64,000 nucleotides of DNA, taken from Thermodesulfobacteriota bacterium (GTDB lineage Bacteria > Desulfobacterota > Desulfobulbia > Desulfobulbales > SURF-16). The DNA lies in assembly GCA_039715015.1 (NCBI GenBank), contig JBDLIE010000012.1:1-64000 (forward strand), read 5' to 3'. The translations under genes were made by a program, and so were the position numbers. The notes under the pieces were generated by a model that was not told the DNA's origin, did no database searches, and saw only the letters and a program-made list of their open reading frames with translations. Positions 12,215 to 16,459 of the stretch are shown piece after piece; position 1 is the stretch's first letter; every line of letters starts with the position of its first letter.

Positions 12215-13585
12215 ATGGATAGCCATATAATTCAAGCCCTTAAAGATATTGTCGGAACGGACCGCCTGGAGACTGCCGCTGAGGAGCTGCAATGTTATTC
12301 CTACGATGGCACTGGCCAGGAATTTGTTCCCGCAGCCGTGGCCTTTCCAGCCAGCACCGAGCAGATCAGCAAGATCATGGAGCTTGCGACGGCTGAGCAA
12401 TTTCCGGTGGTACCACGCGGCGCTGGCAGCGGCATGACCGGCGGCTCCCTCCCCGTGGCTGGCGGCCTGGTCCTTGCCCTGGGCCGGATGGACCGCATCC
12501 TGGAGATTGATGAGGAGAACCAGCTTGCCATTGTTGAGCCCGGGGTCATCACCGGCAAACTCAGGGAAACCCTGGCCCCCCTTGGCCTTTTCTACCCACC
12601 GGATCCGGCCAGTCTCAAATTCTGCACCCTGGGCGGCAATGTGGCGGAATGCGCTGGTGGCCCCAGCGCTGTTAAATACGGGGTGACTCGAGATTATGTC
12701 CTGGGGCTTGAGGTGGTGCTGGCCGATGGCCGCATCCTTGAAACCGGGGTCCGCACCCGCAAAGGCGTGGTGGGCTATGACCTCACCCGCCTCTTCACCG
12801 GTTCTGAGGGTACCCTAGGTGTCATCACCAAAATTATCCTGCGCCTGACCTCCCGCCCCACGGCCAGCAAGACCTTTCTCCTCCTCTTTGCCGAGATGGT
12901 TCAGGCCGCCACCCTGGTGGCCGACATGCTTAAGGAGCATGCGCCCTCCACCCTGGAGTACCTGGACCACACGGCCCTGTCCCTGGTGGCTGACAAGCTG
13001 CCCTTTGACCTGCCTGCCAAAACCAAGGCCATGCTCCTTGTCGAGCTTGACGGTGATGCCCAGTCCGTAAAATTGCAAAACAGCCGGCTCAACGATTTTC
13101 TGGCCGGACGCCCGGATATTCTTCTGCAACAGCAGGCAGAAACCCCTGAGGAGGTGGATAACCTGTGGATGGCCCGCCGTTCCGTATCACCGGCTGCCTT
13201 TAATTTAAGGCCAGACAAAATCAGCGAGGATGTCGTGGTGCCCCGCTCCAAAATACCGGATCTTGTTGCCTGCGCTGCGGAGCTTGGCAGCCGCTACCAA
13301 CTGCCCATCTTTACCTTTGGCCATGCCGGAGATGGCAATATCCACGTTAATATCATGGTGGACAAGGCCAATCAGGCAGAAGTTGACCGCGCTCAGCAGG
13401 CCAAAGAGGCCCTTTTCCGGCACGTGCTTGATCTGCAAGGTTCACTTTCCGGAGAACATGGCATTGGCCTTACCAAGGCCCCTTTCTTGGACCTTGAACT
13501 TTCTGAAACCAGCCTTGATATCCAACAGCAGCTTAAAAATCTCTTTGACCCCCTTCATATCCTCAACCCCGGCAAGATCTTTTAG
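12215..13585 (+). CDS. glcD: FAD-linked oxidase, glycolate/D-lactate dehydrogenase GlcD family
   Basis: PRGAGSGMTGG, FYPPDPAS, GSEGTLG, GHAGDGNIH, SGEHGIG, LNPGK. Confidence 0.88.
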   Translation: MDSHIIQALKDIVGTDRLETAAEELQCYSYDGTGQEFVPAAVAFPASTEQISKIMELATAEQFPVVPRGAGSGMTGGSLPVAGGLVLALGRMDRILEIDEENQLAIVEPGVITGKLRETLAPLGLFYPPDPASLKFCTLGGNVAECAGGPSAVKYGVTRDYVLGLEVVLADGRILETGVRTRKGVVGYDLTRLFTGSEGTLGVITKIILRLTSRPTASKTFLLLFAEMVQAATLVADMLKEHAPSTLEYLDHTALSLVADKLPFDLPAKTKAMLLVELDGDAQSVKLQNSRLNDFLAGRPDILLQQQAETPEEVDNLWMARRSVSPAAFNLRPDKISEDVVVPRSKIPDLVACAAELGSRYQLPIFTFGHAGDGNIHVNIMVDKANQAEVDRAQQAKEALFRHVLDLQGSLSGEHGIGLTKAPFLDLELSETSLDIQQQLKNLFDPLHILNPGKIF

Positions 13586-13713
13586 TCCCCTCCCGGATTC
13601 CCTTTTTTTACAAAAATTCCGCATATATTTGCCATCTACCCTAACTTTTCATACCCTGGCAAGTGAAGGTCTCTTCCCGCCTGCAACCTGCTGGCCAACA
13701 GAAGGAAAAGTGC

Positions 13714-15051
13714 ATGCCGTTAAATCGTCTCACCATAGCCATTATCTACTGCCTGGGCATCATTTGCTTCGGCACCGCAGGCTATATGACCCTGGAGGGC
13801 TATAATTTTCTGGAAGCCCTTTACATGACGGTTATTACCATTACCACCGTTGGTTTTGGTGAGGTCATCCCTCTTTCAGCATCAGGCCGGATCTTTACTG
13901 TTGTCCTCATTATTATTGGCCTTATAGGTCTGGCCTATGCCGGCCATAGCATTGCAGAGTCATTACTAGAGCAGATGTGGAGCAGAAACTCGGAGATTAA
14001 GAAAATGCAGACACGAATTGGCAGACTCCAAAAACATTACATCATCTGCGGCTATGGCCGGGTGGGCCAGGCAGCAGCCCATTATTTTTCCAAGCTGGGC
14101 ATCCCCATCGTTATCATTGAATTTTCCGACGAGGCCTGTGAAAAAATTAAAGAACACGATTTGCCCTATGTCCAGGGTGATGCCACCTTGGACGAAAACC
14201 TGCTCAATGCCGGCATTAAAAGGGCCAGCGGCCTTCTTGCCCTTCTCCACTCCGATCCCCTTAACCTTTTTACCACCCTTACGGCCCGCGAGTTAAACCC
14301 CACCCTGCGCATTATCTCCCGCTCGGCCGAATTCAGCGCCGAACAAAAAATTCTCAAGGCAGGGGCCGACAGCGTGGTCTGTCCCCATGTCACCGCTGGA
14401 AAACATATCGCCGAAAACATTCTGTCTGCCACCGGCCACATGCCGGAAAAAATCGCCCAGCCCATTACCATCCAGCCCCAGTGGGTAAAGATCAAGGAGG
14501 GCTCCAGCATGGCAGATAAACTCATCGGCGAGTTGGCCGCCAAGATGGGCCGAGAGATTATTGGCCTTCGGCGCGGGGATCAAGATTTTATCTATCCTGA
14601 CCCGGTCAGTGTTCTCAAGGTGGGAGACAAGATACTTATCCTGGAGGAAGGCGGCCAAGAGGAGGAACTTGTCGAGGCCACGCCCCAAAAAATCGTCATT
14701 GTCGATGACAATCCGGTTATTGTCCACCTCTACGCCCGTCTCTTTCAAAAGGCTGGCTTTATTCCCCTCACCGCTTCTGACGGTGAGCAAGGATTGGCGA
14801 TGATTTTGGAAGAGAAACCTGATGCCGCTGTTATCGACTTCATGCTGCCGGAGCTGTCTGGCATCGAGGTGGTGGAAAAGGTACGCAAGGTCCTGCCCTA
14901 TCCGATCAAACTCATCGTCTTCACTGCTAACGAACAGGACAAAACCAGAAAGGATGCTTTGGCCGCCGGTGCCGACCAGGTGGTGGTCAAAAGCCCTGAG
15001 GCGGCCGAGGTTATCGATACTGTGGTACAGCTCATCAGGCCCCAGAGCTAA
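13714..15051 (+). CDS. Two-TM potassium channel with RCK (TrkA-N/TrkA-C) domains fused to a C-terminal response-regulator receiver domain
   Basis: TVGFG filter at 13846-13860; CGYGRVG Rossmann motif; IIGLRRG RCK-C; receiver VIVDD...VIDFMLP...FTA...VVK. Confidence 0.88.
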   Translation: MPLNRLTIAIIYCLGIICFGTAGYMTLEGYNFLEALYMTVITITTVGFGEVIPLSASGRIFTVVLIIIGLIGLAYAGHSIAESLLEQMWSRNSEIKKMQTRIGRLQKHYIICGYGRVGQAAAHYFSKLGIPIVIIEFSDEACEKIKEHDLPYVQGDATLDENLLNAGIKRASGLLALLHSDPLNLFTTLTARELNPTLRIISRSAEFSAEQKILKAGADSVVCPHVTAGKHIAENILSATGHMPEKIAQPITIQPQWVKIKEGSSMADKLIGELAAKMGREIIGLRRGDQDFIYPDPVSVLKVGDKILILEEGGQEEELVEATPQKIVIVDDNPVIVHLYARLFQKAGFIPLTASDGEQGLAMILEEKPDAAVIDFMLPELSGIEVVEKVRKVLPYPIKLIVFTANEQDKTRKDALAAGADQVVVKSPEAAEVIDTVVQLIRPQS

Positions 15052-15217
15052 AACTTTTCTGGCCGCTTGCCAGGAAATCCATTGACAAGACAGAGGATCA
15101 TCCTTTATAAGGTCTGTTTGTTTTTGGCCTTGCGCATTACTAATTAAACTGACAAAAGTCAGATATATACATTCTCGCATCGTTTTAGCGGTGCAAACGT
15201 CTCTATACGGAGTTATC

Positions 15218-15412
15218 ATGATTGAAGTTGAAGTACGTGGCGACATCGAATACGCCATTCGCCAACTGAAGAAAAAGCTGCAGCTTGACGGCATGAAAAA
15301 AGAACTCAAACGCCGTGAGCATTATGAAAAACCAAGCGTAAAGCGTCGCCGTAAGCAGGCCGAGGCCAAGCGTAAGCTGCGCAAGACGATGTTCCGCTCC
15401 TTCCGTGACTAG
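15218..15412 (+). CDS. rpsU: 30S ribosomal protein S21
   Basis: IEYAIRQLKKK...ELKRREHYEKPSVKRRRK; GGAG RBS before ATG 15218. Confidence 0.95.
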   Translation: MIEVEVRGDIEYAIRQLKKKLQLDGMKKELKRREHYEKPSVKRRRKQAEAKRKLRKTMFRSFRD

Positions 15413-15478
15413 TTTCTAGTCCTGCCTCTCTGAGGACAGAGCGGGAACGAGCGGCGCCAGTAAACCCGCCTCCTTCCC

Positions 15479-16459
15479 GTGCCCTGGATGACCACTGACA
15501 GCCCTCAGAAACCATCGCCTTCTTCACGCACCCACAAAAGAAAGAGGCCCACTGAGCTGCCAGCCGAAATGACCGGCAGCCGGGATCTCTTTCTTCATTA
15601 TCTAGCCGCTGAACGGCGGCTAGCTCAGAACACCCTGTCGGCCTACCATACAGACCTTCAGGGTCTTTTTGTTTTCCTGCACAAAAAAAAACTTCGCCTC
15701 CCAGCTGTTACCCCGCAGCATCTTCGCTCTTATTTTGCCAAGCTCCACGCCGAGCTGATTAGCAGCCGTTCTTTAAGCCGTAAACTTTCAAGCTTTCGCG
15801 CCTTTTTCCGTTTTCTTGTTGCCGAAAACGTTATTACATCCGACCCCACCAGCCATCTTGACTCCCCCAAGTTAGGCCGCTGCCTGCCCAAGACCCTCAC
15901 GGTGAGCGAGGTTGACCGGCTCTTAAAGAACCATTCTTTATCCGCCCTGGGGCTGCGGGACCATGCCATGCTTCATCTTCTCTATGCCACCGGCCTCCGG
16001 GTCTCTGAGCTTGTCTCTCTGCCCGTTGCCGCAGTGAGCATGCAGGCCGGCTTTATCAGGGTGATTGGCAAAGGGGACAAGGAACGCCTCATTCCCTTTG
16101 GCAAACAGGCCAGGGAAACCCTCATCTCCTATCTAAAAAAGAGCAGGCCGCTCCTTCTTAAAAAAAAGACAAGCCCCCTGGTCTTTATCACCAGCCGGGG
16201 TACGGGTATGACCAGGGCCCGCTTCTGGCAGATTATTAAGGAAAGGGCACGGGTAGCCGGGATCGACAAAAAAATATCTCCCCATGTCCTGCGCCACTCC
16301 TTTGCCAGTCATCTGCTGGCCCATGATGCTGATTTGCGGGCCGTGCAGATGATGCTGGGCCACTCCGATATTGCCACCACCCAGATCTACACCCATGTGG
16401 ACAACGATCGCCTGAAAGCCATCCACCAGAAATTTCATCCCCGGGGCTCGAAAAGATAG
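15479..16459 (+). CDS. xerD: Site-specific tyrosine recombinase XerD (start codon uncertain)
   Basis: LYATGLRVSEL, GKGDKERLIP, SPHVLRHSFASHLL, DLRAVQMMLGHSDIATTQIYTHV, HPR. Confidence 0.93.
   Translation: MPWMTTDSPQKPSPSSRTHKRKRPTELPAEMTGSRDLFLHYLAAERRLAQNTLSAYHTDLQGLFVFLHKKKLRLPAVTPQHLRSYFAKLHAELISSRSLSRKLSSFRAFFRFLVAENVITSDPTSHLDSPKLGRCLPKTLTVSEVDRLLKNHSLSALGLRDHAMLHLLYATGLRVSELVSLPVAAVSMQAGFIRVIGKGDKERLIPFGKQARETLISYLKKSRPLLLKKKTSPLVFITSRGTGMTRARFWQIIKERARVAGIDKKISPHVLRHSFASHLLAHDADLRAVQMMLGHSDIATTQIYTHVDNDRLKAIHQKFHPRGSKR

Follow-up and report, generated by a model that had tools for sequence, protein, structure and literature searches.

The window (the whole 64,000-nt stretch of DNA that was analysed) encodes a protein, P0001, which by its domains and motifs is a member of the two-transmembrane (2-TM) RCK K+ channel family with a true receiver domain as a new regulatory module. 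Based on the conservation of its phosphorylation residues and the company that its relatives keep, we think it reasonably probable that the channel acts as the terminal output of a phosphorelay, i.e. that an MthK/GsuK-type K+ channel is itself a response regulator.

A K+ channel, an RCK domain and a receiver in one reading frame

An earlier note on this DNA had described one uninterrupted ORF joining a channel, an RCK and a receiver, and this description holds. The ORF of P0001 (13714..15051, + strand, as for all its features below; 445 aa) is stop-free, with a Shine-Dalgarno (SD)-like AAGGA in the sequence ahead of its first ATG (13702..13706), and all four Pfam domains exceed the curated cut-offs. 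The pore domain (Ion_trans_2, residues 12-83, 13747..13962; E 1e-16) contains the selectivity filter TVGFG at residues 45-49 (13846-13860), located by MthK alignment and Pfam; Pfam, the structural model and the alignment agree on two TM helices around a pore loop of the TVG(Y/F)G type. An RCK-N Rossmann domain follows (TrkA_N, residues 109-224, 14038..14385; E 4e-32), in which GYGRVG (residues 113-118) opens a GxGxxG-x17-E nucleotide motif, and then an RCK-C subdomain (TrkA_C, residues 257-310, 14482..14643; E 3e-8); both RCK parts are recovered by Pfam and by alignment with MthK. The receiver (Response_reg, residues 327-436, 14689..15036; E 4e-22) was aligned to place the acidic pair D331/D332 at 14704-14709, the phosphoacceptor D375 at 14836-14838, the switch residue T404 at 14923-14925 and K426 at 14989-14991. 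The filter, the GYGRVG motif and these receiver residues thus lie where they had been placed before. Overall, residues 9-312 align with MthK and residues 325-440 with receivers of the PhoP/YycF/Spo0F type.

RCK-C and receiver are joined by a flexible linker (14644..14688; pLDDT < 50 at residues 313-323). Its description as acidic is correct for P0001 and does not extend to the family, in which the net charge spreads from basic to acidic with a median of only 2 acidic. Its length is tight, the span 309-325 comprising 17-21 residues across the family. In an AlphaFold2 model of P0001 (113 relatives), each domain was folded (mean pLDDT 83) and Foldseek returned GsuK as the top match, then MthK. 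The arrangement of the domains is not fixed by this monomer model (pTM 0.42), and a complex prediction with two RCK domains and the receiver scored 0.00, which counts neither for nor against a contact.

The fusion was also looked for in relatives, where its absence would have spoken against the earlier reading, and it was found with the same architecture in 119 other 90%-identity clusters, which provides independent support. A public contig from run X1, with a word depth of 71.5, covers 13400-15500 unbroken, with 2 substitutions and 0 gaps; as it possibly has the same source as the window DNA, it is not independent support. An assembly chimera was rejected on the recurrence in the other clusters and the gap-free X1 contig.

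Conservation of the receiver domain

Five residues (DD, D, T/S and K) define a true receiver in the available text of PMC12632262, and the receiver of P0001 has all of them. Among 128 dereplicated family members, D331 is kept in 128, D332 in 126, D375 in 128, T404 in 127 and K426 in 128, and the residue following the Thr (T+1) is Ala or Gly in 103/128. The domain adopts a (beta-alpha)5 fold in the model, with the small A405 at T+1, P379 at D+4 and G383 at D+8. Between pairs of members, mean identity reaches 58% in the receiver, 57% in pore plus RCK-N and 39% in RCK-C. Pooled dN/dS from 14 hand-picked, partly overlapping pairs was low in RCK-N (0.080) and the receiver (0.082), and higher in the pore (0.149) and RCK-C (0.172). 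The conservation and dN/dS values indicate that the receiver is kept as a phospho-acceptor under purifying selection. A pseudo-receiver was rejected, because the full catalytic set is conserved in the family and the receiver dN/dS is ∼0.08.

The earlier description of the receiver as intact applies to its catalytic residues; the aromatic residue usual at K-3 and the Pro usual at K+1 are missing. The K-3 position is Val in 121/128 members, i.e. the aromatic of Y-T coupling is absent, and K+1 is Ser in 114/128. Other receivers of the host have the K-3 aromatic in 80/99 cases and the K+1 Pro in 87/99. The K-3 aromatic is common rather than defining, being present in 86% of receivers according to the accessible part of PMC12632262. 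A further feature of the family is the conserved alpha1 motif NPVIxRLYxRLFQKAG, with R342 and L343 in 128/128 members. The alpha1 face is the usual surface by which receivers contact kinases and Hpt domains. Excerpts of PMC12632262 describe a second allosteric route that runs to the alpha1-alpha5 face, and we infer that the P0001 receiver uses it.

The pore and the RCK ring

Of 56 loci, 49 have TVG(F/Y)G or SVGFG as their filter and the remaining 7 vary at the last Gly; V46 and G47 are invariant (128/128 members). In RCK-N, the nucleotide motif is formed by G113-G115-G118 and E136, with E or D at the last position in 56/56 loci; GxGxxG-x(17-18)-E/D is given as the nucleotide-binding motif of RCK domains in the text available from PMC6957272. 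RCK-C is the least conserved domain, with family-specific W257, R286 and D291. Six RCK residues (P182, E193, T197, K169, W257 and D291) are fixed in the fused clade and absent in unfused channels.

Ligand sites of characterised RCK proteins were compared with the family. The MthK Ca2+ ligands D184/E210/E212 align with L177/R203/A205 in P0001, which does not keep the Ca2+ site, and Leu and Arg dominate the family at the positions of MthK D184 and E210. The PE motif of KtrA (E125) is replaced by P224-H225 in P0001, the second position being mostly F/Y, also H, in the family. An alignment of RCK-C with the RCK_C of S. aureus KtrA (4xtt), weak at E 0.012, has a 2-residue gap at the D-x-R stretch. 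We take this stretch, plus an Asn, to be the c-di-AMP-binding site of KtrA RCK_C. The host also encodes a second, unfused 2-TM RCK channel (G000:C18:37264-37614), which belongs to a different branch of the channel tree.

A predicted internal start for a soluble RCK-receiver subunit

Alignment and codon-choice tests point to a putative internal ribosome-binding site at 13992..14007, consisting of GGAG, a 9-nt A-rich spacer and the Met98 codon. Met98 is present in 127/128 members and stands in exact register with MthK Met107. An SD-like motif precedes it in 42/55 loci compared with 51/383 other internal Met codons, and after dereplication at 75% in 35/43 compared with 32/292. Within this SD the Glu codon is GAG in 17/18 cases (background 43%), NCG-GAG is chosen in 16/18 compared with 25/162, and the Lys codons of the spacer are AAA in 33/35 (background 52%); in these statistics kin are not independent, and the sequence set spans 44-100% identity. 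An internal start at Met107 yields a soluble RCK in MthK, and the generality of the MthK-type octamer in vivo is under debate, as stated in the accessible portions of PMC2920069 and PMC4565861. Based on the selected SD and the synonymous codon choice, we predict that the site at Met98 gives a soluble RCK-receiver subunit and, with such subunits, that a gating ring would hold up to eight receivers. Many unfused channels (L018-L080) show GGGAGG-type codon choices ahead of the Met98-equivalent position, where several have Leu or Val.

Distribution of the first fused lineage

Among the best 120 of 2811 proteins over the threshold (P0001 included), all have pore, TrkA_N and receiver, at 49-88% identity to P0001. 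The fusion occurs in 11/40 genomes of the host family, in 55/301 genomes of the host order (always one match each) and in 3/401 genomes across the phylum; other groups gave 5/151, 8/186 (two matches partial) and 3/9 genomes. Of the kept GTDB loci, 17/80 carry a channel-receiver fusion, with the labels Desulfurivibrionaceae, Desulfobacteraceae, Desulfopila, Desulfocapsa, Desulfobulbus, Calditrichota, Bacteroidetes and Gammaproteobacteria, and one carrier, Desulfopila sp. IMCC35006 (L010), is cultured. Judged from these homologues, the channel-RCK-receiver design is conserved in many sediment bacteria. An assignment of one carrier genus to the cable bacteria was dropped as unsupported, its cluster being labelled Desulfurivibrionaceae or Deltaproteobacteria.

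In a tree of pore plus RCK-N, 128 dereplicated fused proteins formed one clade against 60 unfused channels, with L017 outside. Distances between channel parts are correlated with those between receivers (Mantel rho 0.53, against a permutation maximum of 0.14), and an ESM Atlas search returned only the family's own cluster of 164 members. Among longer fusions (780-2225 aa), all 37 matches were ordinary kinases and none had a channel domain, which is weak evidence. A receiver-only profile search against 50% representatives was dominated by multi-receiver proteins and did not reveal the origin of the receiver.

Some members extend or shorten the architecture. A fused Hpt was present in 3 of the best 120 (of 2811) first-lineage matches, the phosphorylatable His is kept in the Hpt of all five first-lineage proteins examined, and Hpt fusion involves at least 3 state changes on the first-lineage tree. 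The protein at L014:7989-9113 is a natural member without the entire RCK-C, its receiver being joined straight to RCK-N.

A second fused lineage

A search with L017 retrieved 51 channel-RCK-receiver proteins, labelled Planctomycetota or Nitrospiraceae where named. Their receivers keep DD in 51, D in 50, S in 51 and K in 50 (n = 51), and likewise lack the K-3 aromatic and the K+1 Pro. An Hpt is present in 39/51, C-terminal in 37 and N-terminal in 2, and the His is kept in 37/37 of the C-terminal Hpts (30 by pattern, 7 by eye). The N-terminal cases, P0348 (CheA-P1-like) and P0352, place the Hpt before channel-RCK-receiver and represent a third arrangement. The K+ filter is lost in 25/51 proteins (T-P-T-Q type), which retain RCK and receiver and, usually, the Hpt; this replacement is seen for example in P0350, P0372 and their relatives, labelled Planctomycetota. 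Genomic context for this lineage is thin, coming from one metagenome locus (L146) and from 1/3 genomes in the order of L017.

An AU test rejected a single clade for both fused lineages (p 1.5e-6; 12 + 12 fused, 5 hemerythrin-fused and 28 unfused proteins; quick tree under LG+G4 with no mixture model), and a short receiver-only tree did not join the two. Two separate origins of the channel-receiver fusion are therefore likely on these trees. Given the odd residues common to both lineages, the receiver may alternatively have originated once, the channel part being replaced later.

A hemerythrin (PF01814) replaces the receiver at the C-terminus of P0386, P0390, P0401-P0405, P0408, P0409, P0418 and P0437. 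These channels nest with the second lineage, keep the K+ filter and, from the added domain, may be O2- or redox-sensing.

Gene neighbourhoods and the candidate phosphodonor

In the host genome, the P0001 gene sits between a gene for a FAD-linked oxidase and rpsU, with a XerD-like recombinase gene beyond. The rpsU gene (small ribosomal protein S21, 15218-15412 of the window) is directly downstream and falls below the size limit of the ORF list. In two genomes of the same genus, the oxidase gene is followed directly by rpsU; the channel gene is cleanly absent and the gene order otherwise equal. The channel gene is therefore a dispensable single-gene unit. A promoter/terminator scan at the gene found nothing above chance, and a sequencing-run search for the window DNA gave no RNA dataset among the matches listed.

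No kinase adjoins this copy, as the earlier note had observed: none lies within 4 kb, and 41/54 fused loci, P0001 included, have no two-component gene within that distance. Any signalling gene within 4 kb was found at 13/54 fused compared with 8/84 unfused loci, and a same-strand signalling gene within 600 bp at 5/54 compared with 0/84. These counts were restricted to loci flanked by 5 kb or more, leaving out the positives L003 and L146; L230 and L231 were chosen because an operon was already known in their order (3/52 without them), and the unfused controls belong to other phyla. Due to these selected loci and taxonomically different controls, the 600-bp excess is suggestive only. No conserved neighbour gene was found across 17 + 20 fused loci.

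In five lineages, the channel gene lies directly beside same-strand phosphorelay genes. L230 has the order hybrid kinase, HDOD, hybrid kinase, Hpt, receiver-GGDEF and, last, the channel, and L239 the order hybrid kinase, Hpt, receiver-HisKA, HDOD, hybrid kinase, receiver, channel. In L231, one or more hybrid kinases, an Hpt and additional receivers precede the channel gene, all on one strand; in L003, the channel gene follows an Hpt gene and a receiver gene. In L146, from the second lineage, a kinase and a receiver precede the channel-receiver-Hpt gene. The two hybrid kinases of L239 (L239:3-2036 and L239:4008-6239) have identical C-terminal ∼540 residues, a match that suggests a recent duplication or an assembly artefact.

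The earlier note had proposed a histidine kinase as the partner. Relatives of P0001 do tie the fusion to phosphorylation circuits; as fused Hpts retain their His and kinase/Hpt operons adjoin the gene, the donor looks more like an Hpt than a plain histidine kinase. From these arrangements, the phosphodonor is probably the Hpt of a multistep phosphorelay. The host genome has 55 HisKA and 14 Hpt matches, with stand-alone Hpts at C7:16024-16389, C44:7666-8049 and C61:4314-4733, and one cluster in it (G000:C7:13374-16389, L254), comprising Hpt, HDOD and hybrid kinase, matches the L239 module. The C7 and L239 HDOD proteins are 48% identical compared with 28% for the next paralogue, and the N-terminus of the L239 kinase matches only the C7 kinase in the host (E 2e-16). 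The N-terminal region of the C7 hybrid kinase is unannotated. This kinase occurs in 108/301 genomes of the order and in 27/55 carriers; in two large families its matches approach the limit of detection. Since it is near-core in several families and present in only 27/55 carriers, co-occurrence does not single it out, and the C7 cluster is a candidate donor as a lead only.

In genomes of the Desulfopila/Desulfocapsa type, the channel gene is closely followed by cdaA, which encodes the diadenylate cyclase (DAC), and by apparent cdaR and glmM genes (L007:9481-12823, L010:9558-12855, L015:9477-13172, L140 and L142; DAC was confirmed for two). As this adjacency is confined to related genomes, it was treated as synteny and set aside as a functional link. 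The host itself has one diadenylate cyclase.

A working model and its alternatives

If the channel is indeed a terminal output, four full-length chains would form the pore, and chains started at Met98 would add soluble RCK-receiver subunits to the gating ring. A relay from hybrid kinase to Hpt, the Hpt usually encoded elsewhere and sometimes fused, would phosphorylate D375. Phosphorylation would then change how the receiver contacts the RCK ring or adjacent receivers, probably via the conserved alpha1/beta5-alpha5 face and not by Y-T coupling, and the ring would shift between open and closed jointly with adenine-nucleotide binding at RCK-N. As an outcome, two-component signalling would set K+ flux and membrane potential without transcription.

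Several findings count against a terminal output: most copies are orphans, the Y-T aromatic and the K+1 Pro are missing, the receiver is not docked onto the RCK in the monomer model, and the filter-less half of the second lineage keeps receiver and Hpt. Furthermore, the order receiver-Hpt classically marks an intermediate step of a relay and not its end (PMC12471899, in the text available). Information might accordingly run the other way: channel and RCK would sense K+, nucleotide or membrane state and control phosphoryl uptake by the receiver, its transfer (to a fused or free Hpt) or its hydrolysis, making the protein an input, a relay or a phosphate sink. The REC-Hpt order in 37/51 second-lineage proteins and several first-lineage ones fits this flow, as do the 25/51 filter-less proteins with their phospho-residues kept, the loss of the output aromatic in both lineages and the near-invariant alpha1 face at which kinases and Hpts usually dock. 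However, the lineage of P0001 retains a canonical filter and the internal start, most of it lacks an Hpt (3 of the best 120 of 2811 have one), and in L230 the channel ends an operon beside receiver-GGDEF, another terminal output. We regard reverse flow as the main rival, though an unlikely one.

Phosphorylation of D375 might instead leave the gate alone and act on channel assembly, localisation, partner binding or turnover, e.g. by drawing the channel into a signalling complex or by letting soluble subunits exchange. The flexible tether without defined docking in the monomer model is in line with this, and so is L014, whose receiver sits directly on RCK-N; as L014 lacks RCK-C, the geometry between receiver and ring is not strict. 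Set against these points are the tight linker length (17-21 residues) and the fixed RCK residues of the fused clade that unfused channels lack, for which founder effects are possible, and we rate this explanation as rather improbable. We think it more doubtful still that the receiver has no dedicated protein donor, being set by small phosphodonors of the acetyl phosphate type or by Mg2+, or having a structural role, while RCK ligands gate the channel as usual. That the gene is an orphan in most genomes, and cleanly missing from two same-genus genomes with equal gene order, would suit such a role, but Hpt fusion has occurred repeatedly, P0348 and P0352 carry an N-terminal Hpt, kinase/Hpt operons exist, and the full catalytic set is conserved, unlike in pseudo-receivers (PMC12632262, accessible part).

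Returning to the terminal-output reading, a wider version of it can be drawn up, which we offer tentatively and with somewhat less than even confidence. The family would constitute a response-regulator class with an ion pore as output, in which an RCK ring with up to eight receivers reads multistep-relay phosphorylation cooperatively and converts it to K+ flux and membrane potential. This class would have arisen in at least two channel lineages, with parallel c-di-GMP synthesis in some operons, and one lineage would also have taken up a hemerythrin instead or, by loss of the filter, have turned into nothing but a signalling scaffold.

Relation to known systems

MthK (PDB 1lnq, 6oly) has the same 2-TM pore and a single RCK, colinear with P0001 over residues 9-312 (E 1e-29), but is without a receiver and without GxGxxG, both of which P0001 has. 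The best match to the RCK-N of P0001 is the second RCK of GsuK (PDB 4gx0-4gx5, 4gvl), with the motif GHGRIG (E 7e-19). In contrast to the single RCK plus receiver of P0001, each GsuK chain carries two RCKs in tandem and lacks a receiver. P0001 shares GxGxxG-x17-E/D with the nucleotide-dependent RCKs of KtrA and TrkA, but its RCK is covalently joined to its pore and KtrA E125 is His. In the RCK rings that have been characterised, the gate responds to ions, nucleotides or binding partners. Background on RCK ligands is given in PMC12699388 (available text).

Links between K+ transport and phosphorylation have precedents. KdpE, the response regulator of KdpD/KdpE, controls transporter transcription. 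In the case of MstX-YugO and KinC-Spo0A from B. subtilis, a kinase responds to the leakage of K+ by becoming active (accessible part of PMC3667857). Both systems tie K+ flux to His-Asp signalling, as proposed for P0001; unlike P0001, their link is indirect and the channel has no receiver. In E. coli, the phosphorylation state of PtsN controls YcgO, an RCK-containing K+ transporter (PMC11808508, in part). YcgO/PtsN resembles P0001 in that a terminal phosphorelay acceptor controls an RCK-containing K+ transporter. There, however, a His-phosphorylated PTS protein acts in trans on a K+/H+ antiporter, whereas P0001 has an Asp receiver fused to a channel.

A full-text literature search, with supplements and most subscription journals outside its scope, found no paper on the channel-RCK-receiver architecture in the texts it reached. 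The word 'channel' is absent from the accessible text of a census of HK/Hpt/RR architectures (PMC4558063) and has 0 occurrences in that of a 2025 review (PMC12471899), where response-regulator outputs are given as DNA binding, RNA binding, enzymes and protein binding. Databases already annotate the domains of the fused proteins automatically. If the reading of P0001 as a terminal output is true, a K+ channel gated by phospho-Asp would couple His-Asp signalling directly to membrane potential. Such a channel would also provide a testable example of an RCK ring under covalent control, and a naturally occurring component with which sensor kinases could be connected to voltage.
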